Source of the DNA: Gemmatales bacterium
GTDB lineage: Bacteria > Planctomycetota > Planctomycetia > Gemmatales > HRBIN36
NCBI GenBank assembly: GCA_041640595.1
Contig: JBEPZY010000001.1
Span: 384,001-448,000 of the forward strand
DNA: 64,000 nt
Direction: 5' to 3'
The notes beneath the pieces are model-generated. The model did no database searches and was not told where the DNA came from. It saw only the letters and a list, made by a program, of their open reading frames with translations. This document shows positions 24,819 to 58,639 of this stretch, piece by piece; the stretch's first letter is position 1; the number at the start of each line of letters is the position of its first letter. A program made the position numbers and the translations under genes.

Positions 24819-27677
24819 ATGAGCATGGCTGCGCAGGTACACGTCTGTCCACAGTGCCAACGACCCAACCCATCTGAGGCCACTTACTGTTACTATGACG
24901 GGGCAATTCTAATTTCGACCGCGGCAATGGGCTACGGCCCGGTGAACGTGGCCAGTTTACCTTTTCCTCGGCCGTTCGTTTTTCCGTCCGGTCGCATGTG
25001 TCGCACTTTCAATGAACTAGCGATGGCTATTGTTCAGGAGTGGCAGGCTGCCCGCGACTTACTGGTGGGTGGCTTTTTCGAGTCGTTTCTTGGCGGAATT
25101 GGCCGTGCCGATCTAGCACTGGCTGCACGCCAGGCTGCGCAATTCCCCGACGCCGACCGTGGACTGGACCAGCTGCTGGGGCGATTGCCTTCGGACTCGG
25201 AAGTGATCCGCCCCGCCAAGCTTGCTGCCGAGCCGTTACAGGTCAATCTCGGCACAATGCAAATCGGCCAGGACAATCGTTTCGAGTTGCACCTGGCCAA
25301 CCAGGGAATGCGCTTGCTCTATGGTACTGTCTCAGTAACGAACACCCCCTGGTTAGTGCTGGGTGAAGCCCCGGGCGTGCAAGAGAAAGCTTTCAAGTGC
25401 GAGCGAGAGCTGGTCATCCCGGTGCAGGTGGTGGGCCACAAGCTGCGGGCCAGTTTGAAACCGCTCGTCGGAAAAATCGTCATTGACTCCAACGGCGGCA
25501 AGGCAGAAGTAACCGTTACTGTTCAGGTGCCAGTCAAGCCTTTCCCCGAAGGTATCTTGCAGGGTGCACAAACACCACGCCAGTTGGCTGAACGAGCGTT
25601 CAAACAGCCAAAAGAAGCGGCCGTTTATTTCGAGACCGGAAAGGTAAAGGAGTGGTACGAAGCAAACGGTTGGACATACGGTGTGCAAGGGCCTCCGGCC
25701 AACGGACTGGCAGCAGTTCAGCAGTTCCTCGAGGCCTGCGGCTGGACTACTCCACCTCGCGTCGAATGCGAAACGCGGGAAGTGCAGCTGGAAGGACCAG
25801 TTAACGGCAAACTCGAGTTCAGCGTTCGTGTCAAGGGCTTGGATCCCAAGCCGGTCTTTGCCTGGGCAGTGAGTAACCAGCCCTGGTTGGTGCCCGGTAA
25901 AGCACATTGTGCTGGCCGAATAGCCACCGTACCGGTTACGATCCCACAAATTCTTGCGCCGAGCAATGGCGATCGGCTTCAAGCGGAACTCACGGTAACC
26001 AGTAACGGGCGGGCCAAATTTACTATTCCGGTTACCGTTCGAGTTTCAGGGTTCGTACCTCCGCCCCCGCCGCAAGCCGCAGCACCGTCGGCATCCGTTG
26101 CCGAAGCAACGCCCGGCATGCAAATTCCAGAGCCGGTCGCAGCTGCGGAATCAAGTTCAGCAGCGGAGAGTTCGCCGTTTGCCTTCGGCGAAGCGTCTTT
26201 GTCCGAATTGTCGGGTGCCCGAGGACGTTCTGCGAGCGAAGGCGTCTCTTTGCTCGACGAAGAGCAGGTTGCCTCTGTTCCAATTCGGCGACGCTCAGAT
26301 TACGGCTGGATCCATCTGTTGCCGTTGGCTTTGCTGCTTGTGATTCTGGCAAGTTTGGTGGTTGTGGACATTTTCCGGCGACCGGGAGCGATTCACGCAA
26401 CAGACAAACCGCCTCTCGAAGCCAACGTCGAGAAACAGGAGCTGCTGGATGATACGCCCTATCTCCGCATTAGGTTCAATTCCAATCAGGGGTACCGCCA
26501 GCGTTTTGGCATCGTCATCCCCGGTGGACAGGGTAACCCGGACAAAGCCCTGACTTTTATGGATCGCGATTTTAAAGGGCGATTGAGCAACCCGGGTAGA
26601 ACAAGCAACTTGTGCATCCGTTACGACGGCAAGGACTTTTTGTTTGGGCGGCGAGGGGACGGCCAGCCGAGCGTAATTCACGTGCGCGCTCACAGCGACC
26701 GTAAAGCCGAGGCTCAAGCAGACGGCTACATGCCGGTTGAACAGCCAGTCGCTGGTGAAAAGCATCATGTTTATCGCAGTGTCTTCATTTATAGCGACGA
26801 GAATCAGCGTGACCCTGAAGGCGATCCGGTCGGGATTCGTGTAACTCAAGAGGTGTCCTTGCGGCGCTCAGATGTGTCCCGGAAATACGAGGTCGTTCTG
26901 GTTCGTTTCGTTGTCGAAAATACCGGTTCCAAACCACATCGCGTCGGCTTACGGTACATGCTGGACACGTTTATCGGCAGCAACGATGGCGTGCCCTTCC
27001 TTGTTCCGGGTCAGGATCGCTTGATTCAGGACAAAGCGGAATTTCGAGGCCAGGATATTCCGCAGTTCATACAGGCTCTGGAAAAAGCTGACCTGCAAAA
27101 TCCCGGAACGGTTGCCCACCTGATGTTGCAGCTTCCGGGCTCGCGTTATGAGCCGCCAGAGCGAGTCGTAATCGCCGCCTGGCCGGATAGTAAATTGGGC
27201 GGACGATGCAGGGGGCATTCTACGGAATGGGAGCCCGATTTTCATCCCATCACCAAGACTTCGGATTCGGCTGTGTTTATTTACTGGGCAGAGAAGGAGT
27301 TGTCCCCCGGAGAAAAACGCGAGATGGGCTTTGCTTACGGGCTAGGACAACTTTCGCCGAGCCTCGCTGCTGGCGGCAAGACGCAGCTGGCCATGAGTGT
27401 CAGCGGTGCATTACGCAGAGGCAGCGATTTCACCGTAACCGCATACGTTGCCAACTCGGAGCGTGGTCAGCAAATTGAAATTCGCTTGCCGGAAGGATTC
27501 CGTCTGGTTCGGGGAGAGCCCAGGCGAAGTGTGCCAGCGGTGTCCGGTTCCTATGTTCCGATTAGTTGGCGCGTACGGGCGCCCGACCGACTGGGTGAGT
27601 TTGAAATCGCGGTGCAATTGGGCCAGCTTCAGCAAGTGCAAAAAATCCGAATTGCAGACAAGAGTTTCCTCGATTAG
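24819..27677 (+). CDS. Large single-pass membrane protein (zinc ribbon, two helical+Ig/BACON-like repeats, TM, beta-rich C-terminal region)
   Basis: CPQC..N...A.YCYYDG; repeated PWL..G and SNG beta-strands; Pro/Ala linker; TM WIHLLPLALLLVILASLVVV. Confidence 0.7.
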   Translation: MSMAAQVHVCPQCQRPNPSEATYCYYDGAILISTAAMGYGPVNVASLPFPRPFVFPSGRMCRTFNELAMAIVQEWQAARDLLVGGFFESFLGGIGRADLALAARQAAQFPDADRGLDQLLGRLPSDSEVIRPAKLAAEPLQVNLGTMQIGQDNRFELHLANQGMRLLYGTVSVTNTPWLVLGEAPGVQEKAFKCERELVIPVQVVGHKLRASLKPLVGKIVIDSNGGKAEVTVTVQVPVKPFPEGILQGAQTPRQLAERAFKQPKEAAVYFETGKVKEWYEANGWTYGVQGPPANGLAAVQQFLEACGWTTPPRVECETREVQLEGPVNGKLEFSVRVKGLDPKPVFAWAVSNQPWLVPGKAHCAGRIATVPVTIPQILAPSNGDRLQAELTVTSNGRAKFTIPVTVRVSGFVPPPPPQAAAPSASVAEATPGMQIPEPVAAAESSSAAESSPFAFGEASLSELSGARGRSASEGVSLLDEEQVASVPIRRRSDYGWIHLLPLALLLVILASLVVVDIFRRPGAIHATDKPPLEANVEKQELLDDTPYLRIRFNSNQGYRQRFGIVIPGGQGNPDKALTFMDRDFKGRLSNPGRTSNLCIRYDGKDFLFGRRGDGQPSVIHVRAHSDRKAEAQADGYMPVEQPVAGEKHHVYRSVFIYSDENQRDPEGDPVGIRVTQEVSLRRSDVSRKYEVVLVRFVVENTGSKPHRVGLRYMLDTFIGSNDGVPFLVPGQDRLIQDKAEFRGQDIPQFIQALEKADLQNPGTVAHLMLQLPGSRYEPPERVVIAAWPDSKLGGRCRGHSTEWEPDFHPITKTSDSAVFIYWAEKELSPGEKREMGFAYGLGQLSPSLAAGGKTQLAMSVSGALRRGSDFTVTAYVANSERGQQIEIRLPEGFRLVRGEPRRSVPAVSGSYVPISWRVRAPDRLGEFEIAVQLGQLQQVQKIRIADKSFLD

Positions 27678-35861: not shown

Positions 35862-38800
35862 ATGGAAGCTAACCAGGTCGACAGAAGGACAATTTGGCAA
35901 ACCCGCCTTCGGGCAATTGAACCAGCTGCGCTCCTCGTGGATGCTCTATTGTTGCGGCGAGTGGCGAGGACGGCCCAGGCGGTTTCCATGTTCTCCGGGC
36001 GCGTGCCCCACAGTACTGTGCTGGTTCTTTCCAGGGAGCGTTTGCTCGACCTGACCACCGAAGTTGAACTGGGGGTTCAAAACTCTGGCGAATTGCCGGA
36101 GCAGGTGGCTTTGCTGGCCTGGCCGGGAGATGAGTACGAAGAAAGCGTGGTCGCCCGCACAATCGCCGGACGGTTGCTACATGCGTGGACACATCTGCGT
36201 TGGCTATCGTTGCCCGGGCTGCCTCAATGTCTGCGTCAGCGATTGTGGCAGCTTGGTCAATCCGAATGGGAAGAAATCCTCGCCGTGGCCGCGCAGGATC
36301 GCTGGCTGGCGAGGCGTGTATCCGAGGAGGAGTTGGTCTATCGTGAATTCGTGGCATACTGGTGGGAGCTTCGTCTGGTCTATCCCGAGCGGTTACCGAT
36401 CTGGTTTCCGACATTGGCCCGTCAAATCGAACGAATTGATAACGTCGTGTCGCAGGATATAGATGGCCGGCCTTGGCGAGAACGTCTCTGCCTGGCCGGT
36501 CTGCTTCCGAACAGTCAGGACGAATCCCATTCCGGACATGCAGCAGTGGTTTCAGTCCAGCAAGAGTTGCAGGAGCCTCATTCTGCGTCGCGGCAGGAAA
36601 CCGTCCGCATGGATTTTGAGTTACCGGCGCAGACTGAGGATACTCTTCCAGCCTTAGCCGTTCCGGACGAACCGACCAACGGGGCCAGTCGGCACTGGAA
36701 CAAAATCGCACGGTTGGTGCAACGAGGCAATTTCGTGCGAGCCGCTCGTTTGTGCTGGCTTTACGCTCAGCAAGCGGAACCTGCAAACCGTACCTGGTGG
36801 CAGCAACAAGCACGATGCCTAATCGGCCAGCTTGCAGAGCAGCTTACTAACTCCCTGAGTTCAGACGGGAATGATGCAGAACATTTCGCCGCCATAAAAA
36901 ACGCCTGGCACGAAGCACTCTGGCCTTTGCTCGCTCCGGCGACTTCAGGATTGTTTACCCAGGAGGCAAGACTGCTTTACGATCTGCAGCGCGTTTGTGA
37001 AGATGCTCGGCGGGGACTTTATGTTGTGGATGTGGCTGGCTGGTTACGCACTTGGGGACAGCTCGCCTGGCGCAGGGAACAGCCGTTTTTGCAACAATTT
37101 CTAATCTTGCGACACTTGCGAGCTGCGCTTCGCCGTGTTCCGCTATGCTCGCTTTCGGAAGAGGCTCGCCAATCGCTAAGCTATCTGCTCGAATCCGCTG
37201 TTGAGCAACAAGAGAAACGTTTGCGCAATGCGGTTGCGATTCCGATTCGCCAGGTGCTTGAAGAAGTCGGACTGATCCCCCACAACCTGGCAGAGCAAAT
37301 CGAGCAGGAACGTGTCGTTCAAACTCTCGCTGACCGCATTGTGGAAACCGGACACCTGAACATCGGACAGCTACGCGATGCCATCTCCGCTAATCAACTA
37401 AAACTCCGGGACCTCCAGGGTCTCGGCGAGTGGTGGAATGGAGACCAACTGCTGGCCGCGGACAAGAAGTTATCACTAAGACTTGACGGAGTATATCGCC
37501 GGGGTGAAGTTTATTTGCGCTGGTTCCAGCGACTAAGTTCCATCTTTTTTGGCACTTGCCTTGGACGCTGGTTCAGCTTATTTGTTGCCTTACCTTTTGG
37601 CGGAGCTTACTTGGTTTTGGCAGGACTTGATCACATTCTTCTGCATCCCTTAGGGCACTGGTTGGGAGTGGAGATTAGCTTTTCGGGATTGTGGGGTATA
37701 ACGTTATTCGGTCTATTTCTGCTTGGCGTTATCAATTTTCCCCAATTTCGGGAGCACGTAAAACGGGTACTGCGAGGGATTGGTAGTGTCCTGCGCGTGT
37801 TATTCTGGGATATTCCGCGGTGGCTCATGAGCTGGCGGATTTTATGGTATCTGTGGCATTGGTCTGGCTTCGTTTTCTTCAGGAGATATTTGTTTTTGCC
37901 ACTCCTTCTGGGATTAGCCACTTACGGTTATTGTTCGACACTAAATACCAGTAGGTTCTGGTCAGTAACATCGGTAACGGTTGCGTCAGTTAGTGGGTTG
38001 GCGCTTACGGCAACACGCGAGGGCCGTATCCTTTTAGCGACACTTGCCGATTATTTCGCTTGGACCTTACGCTATCTGAGCATAGAATGGATAGTCCTGA
38101 GTTTCAACTGGATTGTGGAGTTATTCCGCAGCTTAGTTAACTCGCTTGAGCAGGTGCACTATCGTATGGATGAGTGGTTGCGCTACCGGGGAGGTCAAAA
38201 CAGGTTCCAGCTTGCAGTAAAAGCCGTGCTCTCCTTATTTTGGTCGGTTATTGCCTATATCCTGCGGTTCACGGTGTACCTGCTCATCGAGCCACAAATC
38301 AATCCCATTAAACACTTCCCGGTAGTTACAGTGTCGCACAAACTGTTACTGGCAACGATTCCGTTTTTCCGCGACGTAGTGCTCTTGATTACCGGTATGG
38401 AGCCTACACCTGCGAACCAGGCTAAAGCAGTGGCCCTGGTCACTTCGGTGATCTGGGCGATTCCTGGTATCTTCGGTTTTCTCGCTTGGGAGTTGAAAGA
38501 GAACTGGCGACTATATGTAGCCAACCGGGCCAAAAGATTATTACCCTTGCGTATAGGCAGTCACGGGGAAACTATCCCTCAGCTTTTGCGTCCCGGGGCC
38601 CATTTTGGTACACTTCGCAAACTATTTCGCCGCTGGCGACGCTGCTATTCTGATGCTGCTCAAGTCCCGCCATTACTAACAACACGGCGCATTGAAGATC
38701 AAATGCATCATATTGCCAGGGCCATTGAGTCCTTCTTTCACCGGAATTTCATCTTTTTGCTCAATCGCGTTCCTGCCTGGAGCGGTTCTCTTCCAGAGGT

Positions 38801-39599
38801 GGCTGAGGTGCGACTCGGTGTTAGCACCATTCAAGTAGTATTGCGTTGTGAGCACGTTTCCTCTAAGCAGAAAGAAGTTGAAACGGAGGACAATTCTGCT
38901 GTCGTTACTTTTAGTCTCCAGGGGGGCTGGATTGTTGCCCGCTGGGAGAAGTCTGGTTGGCTAGCCCAGTTAAGCTCTGAACAGACAGAAATCCTGTGTA
39001 AAGCTCTGGTCGGCTTATATCACTGGGGAGGCGTCGAGGTTGTTGCCGAACAACTCGATAATCTCGTAGCCTCTATAGAAAATCTTGCTCGAAATCGAGT
39101 GGCCATCCAAATAGTAGCCCAGGAAGCTAAAGTTGATGACTCTGCTATCACATCGTCAGCGCCGGCCTTTCAACCGAAATTAGCTGAGAGTGCAGACGAT
39201 CTAATCATCCTACCGACTGGCAAAAATACGCCCATTCAATCTAGAGTCGCGTATGTTGCAGAAGGAGAGAAAAATTTGTGCTTAGCCTGGTGGCTGGCCT
39301 GGCGGGGACTGCATCTGTATAACATGGCCAGTCCGGGGCAGGGGGTTTTTTACAGGTGGCAGGATCAAAATACGATTAAGCCAAAGAGAACCAATCGCTG
39401 GTTCGAGCCGGGACAGAGCGTCTGGCTCAGCCGGCTGCATTCAAGTGATCGGCCAGGGGAAAATAACGTCCCCTGGCCCGTGCTTAGCCCCCAGCATATC
39501 TGGTTCGCCGCATTTCCACTTTCATGGGATGAGTGGTCTGCCTGGTGGAGTAGGTACAATTGTCACGAGTCTCAGGAGCAACCCAATCCGTTCGGCTAA
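35862..39599 (+). CDS. Large hypothetical polytopic membrane protein (1245 aa)
   Basis: Long helical N-terminal half, several TM segments, EPQINPIKHFPVVTVSHK motif. Confidence 0.8.
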   Translation: MEANQVDRRTIWQTRLRAIEPAALLVDALLLRRVARTAQAVSMFSGRVPHSTVLVLSRERLLDLTTEVELGVQNSGELPEQVALLAWPGDEYEESVVARTIAGRLLHAWTHLRWLSLPGLPQCLRQRLWQLGQSEWEEILAVAAQDRWLARRVSEEELVYREFVAYWWELRLVYPERLPIWFPTLARQIERIDNVVSQDIDGRPWRERLCLAGLLPNSQDESHSGHAAVVSVQQELQEPHSASRQETVRMDFELPAQTEDTLPALAVPDEPTNGASRHWNKIARLVQRGNFVRAARLCWLYAQQAEPANRTWWQQQARCLIGQLAEQLTNSLSSDGNDAEHFAAIKNAWHEALWPLLAPATSGLFTQEARLLYDLQRVCEDARRGLYVVDVAGWLRTWGQLAWRREQPFLQQFLILRHLRAALRRVPLCSLSEEARQSLSYLLESAVEQQEKRLRNAVAIPIRQVLEEVGLIPHNLAEQIEQERVVQTLADRIVETGHLNIGQLRDAISANQLKLRDLQGLGEWWNGDQLLAADKKLSLRLDGVYRRGEVYLRWFQRLSSIFFGTCLGRWFSLFVALPFGGAYLVLAGLDHILLHPLGHWLGVEISFSGLWGITLFGLFLLGVINFPQFREHVKRVLRGIGSVLRVLFWDIPRWLMSWRILWYLWHWSGFVFFRRYLFLPLLLGLATYGYCSTLNTSRFWSVTSVTVASVSGLALTATREGRILLATLADYFAWTLRYLSIEWIVLSFNWIVELFRSLVNSLEQVHYRMDEWLRYRGGQNRFQLAVKAVLSLFWSVIAYILRFTVYLLIEPQINPIKHFPVVTVSHKLLLATIPFFRDVVLLITGMEPTPANQAKAVALVTSVIWAIPGIFGFLAWELKENWRLYVANRAKRLLPLRIGSHGETIPQLLRPGAHFGTLRKLFRRWRRCYSDAAQVPPLLTTRRIEDQMHHIARAIESFFHRNFIFLLNRVPAWSGSLPEVAEVRLGVSTIQVVLRCEHVSSKQKEVETEDNSAVVTFSLQGGWIVARWEKSGWLAQLSSEQTEILCKALVGLYHWGGVEVVAEQLDNLVASIENLARNRVAIQIVAQEAKVDDSAITSSAPAFQPKLAESADDLIILPTGKNTPIQSRVAYVAEGEKNLCLAWWLAWRGLHLYNMASPGQGVFYRWQDQNTIKPKRTNRWFEPGQSVWLSRLHSSDRPGENNVPWPVLSPQHIWFAAFPLSWDEWSAWWSRYNCHESQEQPNPFG

Positions 39600-52934: not shown

Positions 52935-53246
52935 CTTGGCTTGCGCAGTATCAGTAAACTTTCTATGTTACAAGAATCTTATCAGACCCCTTGCAACCTC
53001 CCTATTTTCCAATAAACCGAGTTTAGCCGGATTAACCGATTGGCCGAAGTTTTCCAAAGGGCGCAGCGTGCGTATTTAGAGTGTAGCTGAACATGGGCAG
53101 TCCAGAAGCGATCGGCCGCGTTCTTGACGCTGCCCGGCCGGTCCTCCAAAGCATTCGGTCTGCTGCATCTCCCCGACCTTGCTGAGCACAGCGCGAAATT
53201 GGCGCTTGGGTCTTCAGGACTCGCATCTATCAAAGGAGGTCCGCAC

Positions 53247-53948
53247 ATGTCTGCTCTTAGGAACGCTTTTCTGCGCGTAGAACGGCTGGAAGACCGTGAC
53301 TTGCCCGCAGGCACGGTCACAGCGGCTTTTGCCGCAGGCACCCTTACCCTGACCGGGGATGCGCAAGCCAACAACCTGGAAGTGCGCATCGACAACGGCA
53401 ACGTTACGCTCAAAGGTAAAGGTACGACCATCGCCGGCGGAACTAGCTTCGCTGGCGTCAATGACATTGTCATTAATCTTGGCGACGGCAACGACCGCGT
53501 AACCGTTCGCGGACGCACCTTGGCCGGCAACCTCACTATCGATCTCGGCAACGGCAACGATCATGCTCAGCTCAAGAAGCTTTCGGTTACCGGCAATGTG
53601 TCGGTCACTGGCGGCGCTGGAAATGACCACGTGAAAATCGAAGATCACGTTTTCGTCGGCGGCAACGTTACCGTTACGACCAACGACGGCAACGACCACG
53701 TGGGCATCGAAGAGCTCCACGTAACCGGCACTACCAGCGTGGACACCGGGCTGGGCAACGACAAAGTCGAAATTGAAGAAAGTCAATTCAGCGGTGCCGC
53801 CACGATTCTACTGGGCGACGGCAATGACCGTATCAAGCTGGAAGATGTCAGCTTCGCCGTGGCCAGCACTGTGGATGGCGGTAACGGCACGGACAAGCTC
53901 AAACGAGAAGACGTGTCCGGCCCTGTCAATTACCTTAACTTCCCGTAA
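53247..53948 (+). CDS. Secreted GxGND-repeat (beta-roll/beta-helix) protein with planctomycete extracellular motif
   Basis: LRVERLEDRDLPAG; seven ~22-aa repeats containing GDGND/GNGND; AAGGAGG RBS. Confidence 0.85.
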   Translation: MSALRNAFLRVERLEDRDLPAGTVTAAFAAGTLTLTGDAQANNLEVRIDNGNVTLKGKGTTIAGGTSFAGVNDIVINLGDGNDRVTVRGRTLAGNLTIDLGNGNDHAQLKKLSVTGNVSVTGGAGNDHVKIEDHVFVGGNVTVTTNDGNDHVGIEELHVTGTTSVDTGLGNDKVEIEESQFSGAATILLGDGNDRIKLEDVSFAVASTVDGGNGTDKLKREDVSGPVNYLNFP

Positions 53949-54016: not shown

Positions 54017-54544
54017 TTAGCTGCTTGATGTACCCCCTTGGCGCCTCAGCCAAAGCTGCTGGATCTTTTCTTGCAAAGCCAGGATCGTGCTCAGTGAACG
54101 CGCGTAAAGTCGTAGCGCTCGTGTGCCCGCGCTGCATAGCTGCTGCGACAAATTCGCCAACCATTCTCCTAATGGCATAACTTCTTCGTCGGGCTCTAAA
54201 GGCACCAGACCTTTTGGCAACAGCACTTCGCTGACGCGCGGCTGGCCGCTCAGGCCGACCAATTTTGGCACGCGCGTGTGGCACATATCGAGATAAACCG
54301 GCTCTAAGTCATGACGAATGCGTGTAAATAACTCGACCACCGAACCACCGTGCGCCCGTACGAAGTCCGGGTCCGCTTTCATCACTTCCTCGACCACTTC
54401 AATCATAGCTGCCCACTGCCTGAGTCCTCCCGCCCATTGCTCTACGCGGCGCATCCAGCGATAATAGTCGAGCAAGCTATCCTGAGCCTGGCGACTCAGT
54501 TGCCCTGCCATCGCATAATGGTACTGGAACGTTAGCTTGTCCAC
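54017..54544 (-). CDS. Hypothetical helical protein
   Basis: 175 aa, co-oriented, 48 bp downstream of the Lon-CARF gene. Confidence 0.65.
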   Translation of the reverse strand: MDKLTFQYHYAMAGQLSRQAQDSLLDYYRWMRRVEQWAGGLRQWAAMIEVVEEVMKADPDFVRAHGGSVVELFTRIRHDLEPVYLDMCHTRVPKLVGLSGQPRVSEVLLPKGLVPLEPDEEVMPLGEWLANLSQQLCSAGTRALRLYARSLSTILALQEKIQQLWLRRQGGTSSS

Positions 54545-54592
54545 CTGCTTCAGCGACTAAGTGCCTATGTTTTTCAAACCCATCTCTCGTTA

Positions 54593-55972
54593 CTAGGGAC
54601 GTCGCTGGTTATAAAGTATCCATTGTTCTGTAAAGGGCACGACCATCTGCCTCTTGCGTTCGTGCCGCAAGTACAGGAGTCGGTGTTCCGGCTGCGCCAC
54701 TCGCAGCGCCAGAGTCAGGGTCATTTCCTTAGTGCCTGGCGTGAGATCAAGCCCGACCAACTCGGCAGGCACACCCTGGACAAACGTGTGGACTTCCCGT
54801 TCTAACTCTCGCAACAATTCATCCGTGCTTTTATAAATCTTCCAGATAACCTCGCAGGGCCTTTGTGCCGATGCTCGCATCTCTTCTAGTTCGCGCATTG
54901 CAGCTCGCTTATCACTGGTTGCCAGTACCAGGCATCGGCTTGCTCCGATGCTTTCAATGGCGATGTGAACTAACTCCGGATTATCGCTTAATATGGTAAC
55001 CAGGTGGGAAATGGTCCCATTCTTTTCCTGCCATTGCTGCCGGAGCCGTTCGATAACTCGGGGGAGTAATTGCTGGCGATAGTATTGCTTAGCACGATCG
55101 GTATTCCGACTATAGAGCCGCTCGTAATAGGCTTGCAAGTATTTTATCGGACCGTCTGGCGGAGGCGGCACTTCCAGTTCTAATAAGCACGGGCGCAATG
55201 CTTCCACCGGATCAGATTTGCCCTGCGGCAAGCCTTGAATGGTAAGCAGCGATTGCTCCGGCAACAATTGCCTGGCGTATTCGATTTGACTTTCGGGTAC
55301 AAAGAAAATCTTAACGCCACTCTGTGGCAAACTGGCCGCTCGGAGTTTTTCTTCGAGACAACCGACTGCATCTATACCGCTGCCGTCGTTCCATTCGGCG
55401 GTGATCCATACGTCATGTCGTAGGGAAGGTGCATTGTTTTCCTGAGTCTGGCGTATCTGTTCCGCAGCAATTAGGCTCGCACATAACCAACCCCAACCGG
55501 AACTCGGCGATAACTGTAATTCGGCAGCGAGTGCATGCAGAAAGTCTTGGTCGCTGATGCGCACCGCCAGTTGCAATCCCCATCGCGAAAAATCCGAATT
55601 GTTCCTGAAATCATCGGACGGAACGTGAACGAGTTTTTGACGGATATTTTCTGCGAGTTGTCGCACACGGTCGGGCAACCGCGAGTCGTCGGCCTTTCCC
55701 CAGGCCCACTGCAGAGGTAGCAGGAATGCTTCCCGAAGCGTGGGAAACTGACGGGTATCAGTCAAAGCGTACAAAATGGCACAACCGTTAGGGCGGGGTT
55801 CTAAACTCCAGCGCGCGGACCTTACTAAGTCACCACTCGCTTTTGCTAACACCTCCGGGCGCAACCACCAGTAAGCTAGGTCTCCCAATCGGTGAGTTAG
55901 CCACAGGCATTCGTGTTGCGTCAACTCATCAGGAGGCTTCCTGAGCCGATGGAGAATCAGTTCCTGACTCAT
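54593..55972 (-). CDS. Lon-type Ser-Lys protease domain fused to C-terminal CARF domain
   Basis: SPSSGWGWLCASL...LRHDVWITAEW...VGCLEEKLRAA...GVKIFFVPESQ (Lon proteolytic pattern); HLVTILSDNPE...LVLATS...LDLTPGTKEM...LLYL (CARF pattern). Confidence 0.8.
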   Translation of the reverse strand: MSQELILHRLRKPPDELTQHECLWLTHRLGDLAYWWLRPEVLAKASGDLVRSARWSLEPRPNGCAILYALTDTRQFPTLREAFLLPLQWAWGKADDSRLPDRVRQLAENIRQKLVHVPSDDFRNNSDFSRWGLQLAVRISDQDFLHALAAELQLSPSSGWGWLCASLIAAEQIRQTQENNAPSLRHDVWITAEWNDGSGIDAVGCLEEKLRAASLPQSGVKIFFVPESQIEYARQLLPEQSLLTIQGLPQGKSDPVEALRPCLLELEVPPPPDGPIKYLQAYYERLYSRNTDRAKQYYRQQLLPRVIERLRQQWQEKNGTISHLVTILSDNPELVHIAIESIGASRCLVLATSDKRAAMRELEEMRASAQRPCEVIWKIYKSTDELLRELEREVHTFVQGVPAELVGLDLTPGTKEMTLTLALRVAQPEHRLLYLRHERKRQMVVPFTEQWILYNQRRP

Positions 55973-57095
55973 GGTGCAATGCCTCCACTAAGTCGGGTGG
56001 AATTGATTGTAAATCTGCCTCCCAGACCTCGCGCGAACTGCCCACAGCCAAACAAGGGGGCTTACCAGATTCGAGCGCCTGCAAGAGACCATCGCTCGGA
56101 AACCAGGCTTTGCCCTCGGCGCTGATCTTGCTTTCTAAGTCGGCTAACCAAACCGGTTGATTGCTTAAGCCCAGCGCCGGTTCGCCTGCTCTGGTCATAA
56201 ATACTATTTCAATTTGTTCCGGCCTTTTATCCTGAACGAGCACGCAATGGGCCTCGTACTGGCGATCGGGCGAAACCCAGCGAATGATAACTGGTTGCCC
56301 CGCTGGCGCAGCAGCTACCCGGGCGCGCAACGTCATCAGCAAGAGTAGTTTCAGAGCCGCTAATTGGCGCTCCTCCTTATCGGTAACTGCCCGGGCTACT
56401 GCTTGCCAGATTCCAGCCGACGGCATCCGCTTCAGCGCTTCCTGCATGGATACCTGCGCTACTTCCGACAGTAACCCGCTCAGCCACCACGGCATCAGCC
56501 CCTGATGATCCTGGGTCAAAAGAATTCGCCAGTTTTCAATCAACGGGAGGTGCGCCACGGTGCTGAGGATTTCTAAGTTTTCAGATTGCTGCAATGCCGT
56601 GTCCAACTGCTCTACTTTTTCGGTTAATGCCTGCAACGAGCTATCGTATTCCTGCCACGAAATTTCCTGGTCACCATACGCCTCTAACAAGGCCTCATCC
56701 ACGGCAATATAAGCGGCGTGAATGTCCATCCGATCCAGGAGTAAACGAACGCACAACTCATCGCGCTCTATGGGTTCATCGGTGCTGTCCCAATCATGTG
56801 CGAGGGTTTGGGCACGTTTGGCAGCATCGTCAATTAAGGCATGCAGGGCGGTCATTGCCGCCTTAGCTATAGGTAAGGGCAGGGCGCCGTCCTCATCGCC
56901 CAGGTCCGCGCCGAACAACCGGCAATAACCTAGCGCAATGGCCGCTCGTAACGCCGATGCTTGATGTGCCGGCGTCAGCGGAACCCCGGCCAGTATTTCA
57001 TGGAGTTCCTGCTGCGCCAGGATTTCGTTCAGCTCCTGAACGTAGATAGCCAGCACATCATTATTGCGAGCGAAAATTTCCGTGGTCATAATCAT
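55929..57095 (-). CDS. Hypothetical protein, putative anti-sigma factor / protease substrate
   Basis: Start reassigned to ATG 57095 (AAGGG upstream); helical N-terminal region, Ala-rich linker, beta-rich C-terminal domain; overlaps the Lon-CARF start. Confidence 0.6.
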   Translation of the reverse strand: MIMTTEIFARNNDVLAIYVQELNEILAQQELHEILAGVPLTPAHQASALRAAIALGYCRLFGADLGDEDGALPLPIAKAAMTALHALIDDAAKRAQTLAHDWDSTDEPIERDELCVRLLLDRMDIHAAYIAVDEALLEAYGDQEISWQEYDSSLQALTEKVEQLDTALQQSENLEILSTVAHLPLIENWRILLTQDHQGLMPWWLSGLLSEVAQVSMQEALKRMPSAGIWQAVARAVTDKEERQLAALKLLLLMTLRARVAAAPAGQPVIIRWVSPDRQYEAHCVLVQDKRPEQIEIVFMTRAGEPALGLSNQPVWLADLESKISAEGKAWFPSDGLLQALESGKPPCLAVGSSREVWEADLQSIPPDLVEALHHESGTDSPSAQEAS

Positions 57096-57126: not shown

Positions 57127-57867
57127 TTACTTCGTCGTGGTCGAATGTTTGCCGTTTTCCGAATCTTCCAACGGGTCGGGCAACGTCCATCGCCGTTGCC
57201 TGAGTTTAATACGCGGCCGCCTGGTCGTCGGTGACAACATTTCCGCGGCTGGCCATTCGGGCAGCGCGCCCCGCCACACTGGAAGAGGAGCACTCGTGTC
57301 GAAGCCCCAGTTCTCCGGTTGCACGAAGCGGATTTTTTCATCCGTCGGCATAAAAAAGCGCCTGGCTCCACCTTGTTCCCTAATGGGAGCGTAACGCCAA
57401 ATATAGGTGTGAGCAACATGACGCCACCGACGATGCGGCGGGTGAAGATTAGGGCGGTCGGGATAATAGCAGGTTACCAGATGTGCCCGGCTATCGTCGT
57501 ATTTGGACTTGAGCACGAAAATGGCCCCAGTAGGCAGAATAGCTATCCAGGCATGACGGCTTAATCCAATCCGTTGCAGTAATACCAACGGACGATTCAG
57601 CGATTCGCGCAGTGCCCCACCGAATAACTGCTCCAGTCGCCCCAGGGTCTCATCGTTTAAGTCTGACTCGCCGTGGTACCATTGGACTAAGCGGTCGCAA
57701 AGCTCCTGCGTCAGCCATTCGGCCCACGGTCCATCGCATCGAGAGATGTGGCGCTGAACAATATGGGCCAGGCATTGCTGCAATAGGATCACCGTACAGC
57801 GCTTGCCGCGTGGGGCATCTGGATCACGGGGATCAGGTAGCTTGTCCCATATCAGGAAGATCGCCAT
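57127..57867 (-). CDS. Hypothetical protein, possible BECR-fold ribonuclease
   Basis: HIVQRH and LVTCYYP motifs; overlaps the 3' end of the sigma gene. Confidence 0.5.
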   Translation of the reverse strand: MAIFLIWDKLPDPRDPDAPRGKRCTVILLQQCLAHIVQRHISRCDGPWAEWLTQELCDRLVQWYHGESDLNDETLGRLEQLFGGALRESLNRPLVLLQRIGLSRHAWIAILPTGAIFVLKSKYDDSRAHLVTCYYPDRPNLHPPHRRWRHVAHTYIWRYAPIREQGGARRFFMPTDEKIRFVQPENWGFDTSAPLPVWRGALPEWPAAEMLSPTTRRPRIKLRQRRWTLPDPLEDSENGKHSTTTK

Positions 57868-58639
57868 GACCGTGCTCCCTAGCCAGTTCGCGAATGCAGC
57901 GGAGTTTCATTAGCCATTCGAGACGCCGTTTCCATATCACACATAAATGATTCTCGGTCAGCCCGGTCACCTCGGCTAACACTTTGAGGCGCTCTTGCTT
58001 ATTGTCTAAGCTTAACATTGCAGCTGGTGGAAACGGCCAGGGCCACCCCACTTCTAAAACCCATTGCTTCCACGTGTTTTCCGGTATCTTACACCATAAG
58101 CCGGAAAGCACCAGCATAATGATGCGATCGCGCAGAGGTCGCCAACTGGACACCCGGCTCAAGTCCTCCTCACAAAAGGGAAGTTGGAATAGCGACAACG
58201 CCTTGGGCATAACTGCCACCGACTCACCGCCAAGCCATTCGAGAACGTCAAGGCCCTCGTTCTGGACTCTTTCAGTAACTTGCTGGGATAATCTCAGGTT
58301 GCTTAATGCGGTTGGCCGTCGGCGCTGTTGATCATGAAGAAAGTTGCGGGCGACACGCTTCGCCCAGCCCACAAATCGGCCTCTGTGAGGATCGAATCTT
58401 CCTTGTAATAGTTTCAATATGACGTGTTGTGCCGCATCCTCTGCTAAAGATTCATCGTTGAGATTCATAACCGTCGCAGCCAACTGTCGCCGCGCTATAA
58501 TTGCTACAATCCCTGTCAGTCGCTCGATTGCTTGAGCTCGCAACGTTTCGGGTTGGGTGTTATCAAGGATTAGTGCGACTAACGCTTCCGGGTCAGCATT
58601 TACCAGATCATCAGGGGACGGTGCTTGCGATTCCGGCAT
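57833..58639 (-). CDS. ECF-type sigma-70 family factor
   Basis: Sigma2: AEDAAQHVILKL...FDPHRGRFVGWAKRVARNFLHDQQRRR. Sigma4-like HTH: LAEVTGLTENHLCVIWKR. GGGGAG RBS. Confidence 0.85.
   Translation of the reverse strand: MPESQAPSPDDLVNADPEALVALILDNTQPETLRAQAIERLTGIVAIIARRQLAATVMNLNDESLAEDAAQHVILKLLQGRFDPHRGRFVGWAKRVARNFLHDQQRRRPTALSNLRLSQQVTERVQNEGLDVLEWLGGESVAVMPKALSLFQLPFCEEDLSRVSSWRPLRDRIIMLVLSGLWCKIPENTWKQWVLEVGWPWPFPPAAMLSLDNKQERLKVLAEVTGLTENHLCVIWKRRLEWLMKLRCIRELAREHGHGDLPDMGQAT

Follow-up and report, generated by a model that had tools for sequence, protein, structure and literature searches.

How might a protease domain of the Lon type act when it lacks an ATPase module and is joined to a CARF sensor, amid housekeeping genes of the chromosome? 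The question is raised by a minus-strand gene of the planctomycete Gemmatales bacterium (GenBank assembly GCA_041640595.1), which lies in a 64,000 nucleotide stretch of contig JBEPZY010000001.1 (positions 384,001 to 448,000), hereafter the window, whose own numbering is used for all coordinates that name no other contig or locus. An original prediction, made from the sequence alone, described the product of this gene as an ATPase-less Lon protease domain fused to a CARF sensor. We find that the protein, here called Lon-CARF, is an ATPase-less Lon protease domain with an intact Ser-Lys dyad fused to a C-terminal CARF domain of the Csm6 type, and that its gene comes last among the functional genes of an operon of four, which encodes an ECF-like sigma factor, a protein of 246 residues, a partner protein of 388 residues, and Lon-CARF. 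The open reading frame (ORF), the codon coordinates of Ser158 and Lys209, and the peptides SPSSGWGW, LRHDVWITAEW, VGCLEEKLRAA, GVKIFFVP, HLVTILSDNPE, and DLTPGTK (residues 409-415) were all located as claimed (Table 1).

Domain structure of Lon-CARF

Lon-CARF is matched by the PADLOC profile PDLC01981 (CARF_m2--CARF_LON) with an E-value of 1.7e-106 and a score of 355 bits, residues 3-455 corresponding to profile positions 3-407 of 408. Weaker matches to the PADLOC families Csx1, CARF_HEPN, and CARF_PDDEXK cover residues ~300-452, and every PADLOC match of the protein is to a CARF family. In metagenomes, the Lon-CARF family comprises 1008 clusters (50% identity) at E ≤ 0.001 and 450 at E ≤ 1e-30, with nearly all of these relatives 440-480 residues long.

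The AlphaFold2 (AF2) model of Lon-CARF, for which the query was aligned with 15 of its 16 homologues (the partial 341 residue sequence P0015 being excluded), has a predicted local distance difference test (pLDDT) score of 89.7 and a predicted template modelling (pTM) score of 0.86, and shows both the Lon fold and the CARF fold that had been anticipated. Residues ~53-269 superpose on the protease domains of LonA, LonB, and LONP1 with Z-scores of 15-16.3 and a root-mean-square deviation (RMSD) of 3.0-3.3 Å over 171-181 residues, the Lon structures matched including 6on2, 6x27, 3m6a, and 1rr9, and RadA and BrxL, through their Lon-like domains, match the model as well, at Z ~14. A profile of the family (16 sequences) searched against PDB sequences finds the Lon protease domain of A. 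fulgidus (1z0e) at an E-value of 0.006, with Ser158 placed opposite the serine of ‘gdSAs’ and Lys209 opposite the lysine of ‘vtqKieaA’, which we take to be the catalytic residues of A. fulgidus Lon. Fold and profile together uphold the identity of the Lon domain, whereas its extent had been set too small at residues ~150-245. Both residues of the dyad are kept in 146 of 146 family members in a conservation alignment of the query and 145 representatives, from which 13 of 158 proteins with lengths outside 400-520 residues had been removed, and this invariance, which bears out the claim of an intact dyad, argues for a working protease. The claim that the protein carries no ATPase likewise agrees with the absence of a Walker A pattern from Lon-CARF and of an AAA family from its Pfam matches, with all 459 residues taken up by the two domains and the helical part N-terminal to them. 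The protein therefore shares with canonical LonA and LonB proteases the fold and the aligned Ser-Lys dyad, but not the AAA+ module, and by analogy with the SAVED-Lon protease CalpL is presumably a site-specific rather than a processive protease.

Residues 273-459 of the model fit the CARF domain of Csm6 from T. thermophilus (TtCsm6, 5fsh) with a Z-score of 17.5 and an RMSD of 2.8 Å over 177 residues, and a complex of Csm6 with cyclic tetra-adenylate (cA4; 8jh1) matches at Z 17.2. Other CARF ancillary proteins follow at Z 10-14, namely Can2 bound to cA4 (7bdv, Z 14.0), Can1, Card1, Cami1, Cad1, Csa3, and Crn1, with chains of the SAVED-Lon protease CalpL absent among the structural matches listed. 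The family profile also reaches Csm6 among PDB sequences, at an E-value of 9.5e-6, with DLTPGTKEM aligned opposite DLTSGTKAM and Lys415 opposite K137 of TtCsm6, a position occupied by alanine in the K137A mutant structure 8jbc. Conservation is high throughout the motif that had been read as the CARF signature, with Asp409 kept in 144, Gly413 in 143, Thr411 in 132, and Lys415 in 126 of the 146 family members, and Ser329 outside it kept in 136; the proposed C-terminal CARF domain is thus supported by fold, profile, and motif alike. From the model and the structural matches, the sensor consists of one CARF unit of ~140 residues with a helical extension. TtCsm6, the best sensor match among those listed, similarly places a helical extension before its Rossmann-like core and carries the DLT(S/P)GTK motif, but joins an N-terminal CARF domain to a HEPN RNase effector, whereas in Lon-CARF the CARF domain is C-terminal and the effector is a Lon protease.

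Not every profile agrees with this assignment. The Pfam scan of Lon-CARF returned no Lon_C (PF05362; E ≤ 1), CARF, or AAA family and only a sub-threshold match to SPAN, and the NCBIfam model TIGR02710 (CRISPR-associated CARF protein) scored 16.6 bits, under its cut-off of 83.9. Additionally, the Lon region (residues 100-270) submitted as a single sequence found no match among PDB sequences. The Lon relationship is seen only through the family profile and the fold, the sequence being too divergent for Pfam Lon_C. Of the profile comparisons by which the original prediction proposed to check itself, the one with Lon_C found nothing, Pfam gave no CARF match either, and the end-to-end match came from PADLOC.

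Operon and candidate substrate

Five ORFs follow one another in the same direction on the minus strand, and the fourth of them encodes Lon-CARF. The genes of the sigma factor and the 246 residue protein overlap by 35 nucleotides, a gap of 31 nucleotides precedes the partner gene, the partner and Lon-CARF genes overlap by 44 nucleotides, and a gap of 48 nucleotides separates Lon-CARF from a fifth ORF of 175 residues. A scan of the operon for promoters and terminators gave counts not above those of shuffled sequences. The sigma factor is recognised through its region 2, with the NCBIfam model sigma70-ECF matching at an E-value of 3.4e-8, under that model's cut-off, and a profile of the sigma family finding extracytoplasmic function (ECF) SigE structures in the PDB at an E-value of 2.5e-5 by region 2 alone. 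The 246 residue protein has no match in Pfam, PADLOC, NCBIfam, or PDB sequences; its matches in the Atlas score at most 0.88 and have no family in common, and a homologue search returned 10 proteins, all without a name or a Pfam domain.

A peptide-pattern scan of species-representative genomes matched 73 stretches, 18 of which encode a Lon-CARF relative; 17 of these 18 loci carry Planctomycetota-type labels, and one comes from a bin labelled Alcaligenaceae. The partner gene lies directly upstream of the Lon-CARF gene in 17 loci, the exception (L024) being a contig cut, and is split into two ORFs in L031 and L038. Profile searches find a sigma homologue in 16 loci, with the two that lack one (L024 and L033) being contigs that end just upstream; the sigma profile was trained on 11 of these 16 loci, and the other five are new matches at E-values of 5e-39 to 5e-6. 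The 246 residue protein is recognisable in six of the 18 loci and in G330, and an ORF of ~260-300 residues, 10-16% identical to it, occupies the place of its gene in L027, L028, L029, L037, and L039. G330, a complete genome of the same class, carries the full four-gene cassette, with its Lon-CARF protein matching the PADLOC profile at an E-value of 3.9e-152. The likely substrate and output of the protease are indicated by this operon, in which it stands together with a conserved partner and a sigma factor, and which the original prediction did not note.

The fifth ORF of the series appears in L022 and L023, the two closest relatives, as an intact membrane M48-peptidase protein of ~730 residues (741 and 729 residues respectively, with Peptidase_M48 at residues ~125-387) encoded downstream of Lon-CARF. 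Only residues 567-740 and 556-726 of these two proteins find a tblastn match in the window, at 54035-54586, and the first ~555 codons of the gene, including those of the peptidase domain, were not found elsewhere in the genome by tblastn. The M48 peptidase gene was considered as a core component of the cassette and rejected, being present only in L022 and L023 of the 18 loci.

The source genome encodes a second, paralogous Lon-CARF protein, 31% identical to that of the window, on contig C5 at ~101.5-104.3 kb (L021:8546-11324 (+)), where it adjoins apparent flagellar genes. Directly upstream the paralogue has a gene of its own, whose product of 456 residues resembles the partner in the C-terminal beta domain only (33% identity over 97 residues), and no sigma homologue was found by BLAST among the ORFs of the surrounding 22-kb region. 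As the only gene of the cassette that also accompanies the C5 paralogue, the partner is the constant companion of the protease.

The partner gene is taken to start at an internal ATG because the upstream gene ends at 57127 and the N-termini of homologues agree. Its AF2 model (pLDDT 82.5) places helices over residues 2-262 and strands over residues 268-360, with an N-terminal domain that is confident to about residue 220 and a linker, residues ~221-270, with a pLDDT of ~50 (47-64 per 10-residue block, and below 50 at residues 258-265). The C-terminal beta domain is the only part conserved in all 17 partners, with W273, P276, A282, L349, V351, and W358 invariant. In 14 of the 17 partners, Ala-Ala or Ala-Ala-Ala stands 11-17 residues ahead of the invariant Trp273, and the RVAAAPAG sequence of the window's partner suggests an analogy with CalpT of Ca. 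Cloacimonas, which is reported to be cut within an LAAA motif shortly ahead of the C-terminal domain, with exposure of a degron (10.1101/2024.05.08.593097). A wide structural search with the partner model yielded generic three-helix or spectrin-like bundles (Z < 10) over residues 69-206, and a complex prediction of Lon-CARF with the partner, run without controls, gave a score of 0.00, which counts neither for nor against binding.

Table 1. Features of the Lon-CARF operon in the window, and Cas10 genes of the source genome
Feature	Position	Strand	Details and basis
Lon-CARF protease gene, 459 residues + stop codon	54593..55972	-	Start ATG; PADLOC profile, AF2 model
N-terminal helical part of Lon-CARF, residues 1-52	55817..55972	-	Model helices 2-10, 19-36, 39-45, 47-52
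Lon proteolytic domain, residues 53-269	55166..55816	-	Ser158 at 55499-55501, Lys209 at 55346-55348
CARF sensor domain with its N-terminal helical extension, residues 273-459	54596..55156	-	DLTPGTK at 54728-54748
ECF-like sigma factor, 268 residues, first operon gene	57833..58639	-	Pfam Sigma70_r2, E 2e-8, residues 55-108
246 residue protein, between sigma and partner genes	57127..57867	-	No known family
388 residue partner gene	55929..57095	-	Start at internal ATG 57095
C-terminal beta domain of partner, residues 268-360, candidate docking domain	56016..56294	-	Conservation
Ala261-Ala263 of RVAAAPAG in low-confidence linker, candidate cleavage site	56307..56315	-	Ala-Ala motif, analogy with CalpT
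175 residue ORF, C-terminal leftover of ~730 residue M48-peptidase gene	54017..54544	-	tblastn
Cas10 #1, Cmr2	Contig C8		III-B operon beside I-B system and 190-repeat array
Cas10 #2, Csm1	Contig C23		
Cas10 #3, 816 residue Cas10	Contig C3		III-D operon
Cas10 #4, 614 residue Cas10	Contig C1, ~21 kb		III-D-like operon with CARF-PD-DExK effector

Elsewhere in the window, an ORF of 274 residues at 53124-53948 (+) belongs to no family and is built of ~22 residue repeats with G-N-D-x-V motifs; its DNA contains three 26-nucleotide direct repeats, 66-69 nucleotides apart (53619, 53688, and 53754), and the product is possibly a secreted or surface protein of the beta-helix type. Two large ORFs, of 952 residues at 24819-27677 (+) and 1245 residues at 35862-39599 (+), have no Pfam family at E ≤ 0.001.

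Proposed relay and its link to type III CRISPR

By analogy with the CalpL/CalpT/CalpS proteins and with CARF effectors, we infer for this cassette a ligand, dimerisation, a substrate, a cut site, a sigma holder, and an output, which together would form the following chain. One of the four Cas10 complexes of the source genome would detect foreign RNA and make cyclic oligoadenylate (cOA). The ligand would then bind the CARF domain; cA4 is the likeliest, as it is bound by the nearest CARF structures among the matches listed (TtCsm6 and Can2). The CARF domain is assumed to form a homodimer, since CARF sensors usually do so, and dimerisation as the activation switch, as put forward in the original prediction, is likewise an assumption. 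Binding would activate the Ser158-Lys209 dyad of a Lon domain that works without ATP, and the protease would cut one dedicated substrate, the 388 residue partner encoded just upstream, probably within the disordered Ala-rich linker (RVAAAPAG) between the helical N-terminal domain and the C-terminal beta domain. Cleavage, possibly followed by degradation of a fragment, would free the sigma factor held by the N-terminal domain of the partner and/or by the 246 residue protein, and the freed sigma factor would reprogram transcription. We put the probability of the whole chain, from cOA to the release of the sigma factor, at roughly 60%. As the sensor is a single CARF domain and not a SAVED pseudo-dimer, the filament mechanism of CalpL cannot be assumed.

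Several results for the partner and the sigma factor weigh against this chain. The partner has no match in Pfam or, as a profile against PDB sequences, below an E-value of 0.65; Foldseek with its model finds nothing in the PDB at E ≤ 0.001, and the Atlas offers no usable match. Whole-protein searches thus detect no likeness of the partner, in sequence or in fold, to CalpT or to any anti-sigma factor, and in the model its N-terminal domain is all-helical, with no MazF-like domain present. Three of the 17 partners are without the Ala-Ala motif in the linker, and the motif is weak evidence for a cut site, as Ala-Ala also occurs in 40% of 30 residue windows of the same Ala-rich proteins. Furthermore, region 4 of the sigma factor was not detected with Pfam or with the family profile against the PDB.

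Since cleavage and binding of the partner are predictions only, Lon-CARF may instead be a cOA-activated protease with another substrate, be it the 246 residue protein, the sigma factor itself, or, through broad cellular proteolysis, proteins whose loss leads to dormancy or death. A 2022 review, in its section ‘CARF-Lon effectors’, treats such proteins as bioinformatically predicted fusions and guesses at host killing, by attack on essential host proteins, or at promiscuous proteolysis (PMC9704534), and the 246 residue protein, whose fold is not recognised, is likewise specific to the cassette. However, the universally linked gene is that of the partner, found in 17 of 18 loci compared with six for the 246 residue protein, and the partner alone accompanies the C5 paralogue. 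The characterised relatives, CalpL and the CHAT proteases, are moreover reported to cut one dedicated protein encoded in their neighbourhood. We therefore regard a different substrate as unlikely, and the partner as the better candidate.

A second alternative severs the cassette from CRISPR altogether, making it, in this genome, a chromosomal stress or regulatory switch that answers to another nucleotide or to a non-CRISPR signal. The surroundings lend themselves to such a view. Among 54 window ORFs scanned with Pfam there is no Cas protein, and a repeat scan of the 64-kb window found no CRISPR array; the nearest array ends ~61 kb from the Lon-CARF gene. With no cas gene nearby, a Lon-CARF effector would have to work in trans. 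The genes around the cassette are housekeeping genes (the nuo operon, clpX, sucCD, and others), and a xylose-isomerase-like TIM-barrel neighbour is common to the window, L022, and L023, as would be expected if the cassette had been stably passed on by vertical descent at a distance from cas loci. In 12 of the 18 related loci, no type III effector gene lies in the scanned flanks, although one of them (L029) has a Cas1 fragment.

Against this stands the content of the source genome, which carries at least four Cas10 genes, cyclase-competent and all four with GGDD (Table 1). Cyclic oligoadenylates are diffusible, and type III effectors can therefore act in trans. A CARF-PD-DExK effector of 488 residues, similar to Can2 and Card1, is encoded in the III-D-like locus (L042:4537-6003 (-), C1 ~12.5-14 kb), so that the genome has several cOA-responsive effectors, which could draw on a common pool of signal together with the Lon-CARF proteins. 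Among the structural matches listed, the CARF domain is closest solely to CRISPR ancillary CARF domains. A 247-repeat array on contig C1 (359748-377916) ends ~6 kb before the start of the window, and a stand-alone reverse transcriptase and Cas1 lie beside it (L040:16905-19618).

The relatives of Lon-CARF supply the more direct link. Type III effector genes occur in the flanks of at least six of the 18 loci (L025, L027, L032, L034, L036, and L038), a minimum in that the flank scan took in 111 of 240 ORFs. Of 401 sampled genomes of the phylum, six carry Lon-CARF, the source genome among them, and 76 carry the Cas10 palm domain; five of the six Lon-CARF genomes carry the palm domain, the exception (G082) being 75% complete, a co-occurrence that is supportive but not conclusive, as the genomes are few and related and the Pfam model also matches an E. 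coli control. The strongest single CRISPR link of the family is a protein of 1118 residues in G135, in which a Lon-CARF protein (residues 155-539, PADLOC E-value 1.4e-25) is fused to Cas10 (residues 564-1017, E-value 6e-53, with GGDD at residue 871), placing a cOA synthase and a cOA-sensing protease on one polypeptide. Its gene (L045:6828-10184 (-), contig C1 of G135, ~361.8-365.2 kb) lies inside an operon of III-D type, and the three genes upstream of it gave no match to the sigma or partner profiles. At the level of the family, an association with type III systems is shown, and Lon-CARF is very probably a type III-linked CARF-Lon effector protease; a cassette uncoupled from CRISPR is correspondingly improbable.

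It is most improbable that Lon-CARF serves mainly as a ring nuclease or cOA sponge that shuts off other CARF effectors, with a Lon domain that is non-catalytic or structural as in RadA and BrxL, for whilst TtCsm6, the closest CARF among the matches listed, has by its entry titles been solved with A2>p and with cA4, its K137, the counterpart of Lys415, has been mutated in a solved structure, and the Lon-like domains of RadA and BrxL fit the fold, a pure off-switch would leave the invariance of the dyad unexplained and the conserved partner and sigma genes without a role.

Relation to known systems

The type III relay that most resembles the proposed chain is that of CalpL, CalpT, and CalpS, known from Sulfurihydrogenibium and Ca. 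Cloacimonas. CalpL has been biochemically characterised; it is activated by the stacking of its SAVED domains into filaments, and its N-terminal helical domain has been proposed as a protein-binding surface. CalpL and Lon-CARF share one domain order, in which helices at the N-terminus precede an ATPase-less Lon domain bearing a Ser-Lys dyad and a cOA sensor forms the C-terminal end. Each is encoded beside a partner built of an N-terminal domain, a flexible linker, and a small C-terminal domain, with an ECF-like sigma factor adjacent, and both families occur in or near type III loci. The two systems differ in their sensors, with the SAVED domain of CalpL comprising two fused CARF-like halves and the sensor of Lon-CARF being one Csm6-type CARF domain. 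They also differ in their partners, with CalpT pairing a MazF-like N-terminal domain with a DUF2080 C-terminal domain, whereas the N-terminal domain of the 388 residue partner is all-helical and the protein has no sequence match to CalpT. Additionally, the cassette of the window contains an extra gene, that of the 246 residue protein, and is far from any cas gene. The same logic of protease, inhibitor, and sigma factor is described for the type III-E TPR-CHAT/Csx30/CASP-sigma system and for SAVED-CHAT, in which, however, the protease has the caspase-like CHAT fold and another route of activation.

The CARF-Lon fusion, which the original prediction called unusual, is a real architecture but not a new one, being already catalogued in PADLOC, of whose family PDLC01981 the window protein is a full-length member, and predicted in the section of the 2022 review cited above (PMC9704534). 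Compared with the guess offered there, the conserved sigma and partner cassette points instead to a specific signalling relay. Our literature search on CARF-Lon found no biochemical study of any CARF-Lon protein, with the experiments found all concerning the SAVED-Lon protease CalpL; the original paper on CARF classification fell outside its coverage and may describe the sigma and partner neighbourhood. Taken as a whole, the CARF-Lon family represents a variant of the Calp relay that has yet to be characterised.

It is possible, and we offer this only tentatively, that the resemblance arose separately, and that the CARF-Lon cassette is a relay of four parts put together independently of Calp and not derived from it. 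The Lon protease would then be gated by a CARF homodimer, and its substrate would be a helical, anti-sigma-like protein unrelated to CalpT and cut at a conserved Ala-rich linker, with the 246 residue protein helping to hold or modulate a sigma factor that has no recognisable region 4. The relay and the paralogue, which has its own partner but no sigma factor, would both listen in trans to the four type III systems of the source genome, with the same protease fused to Cas10 in another planctomycete.

Relays that run from a protease to a sigma factor have only lately been recognised as an output of type III systems, and the only Lon-based one to have been studied is that of CalpL. A version with a CARF sensor would couple ligand binding to proteolysis in a way other than that of CalpL, presumably within a dimer, and CARF-Lon proteins whose partners are apparently unrelated to CalpT are useful for comparing how such relays are constructed and evolve. 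As the family is sizeable and offers a clear candidate substrate and cut site, the mechanism is directly testable with purified proteins. For the source genome, four genes that would otherwise remain ‘hypothetical’ can be annotated as one CRISPR-linked signalling module.

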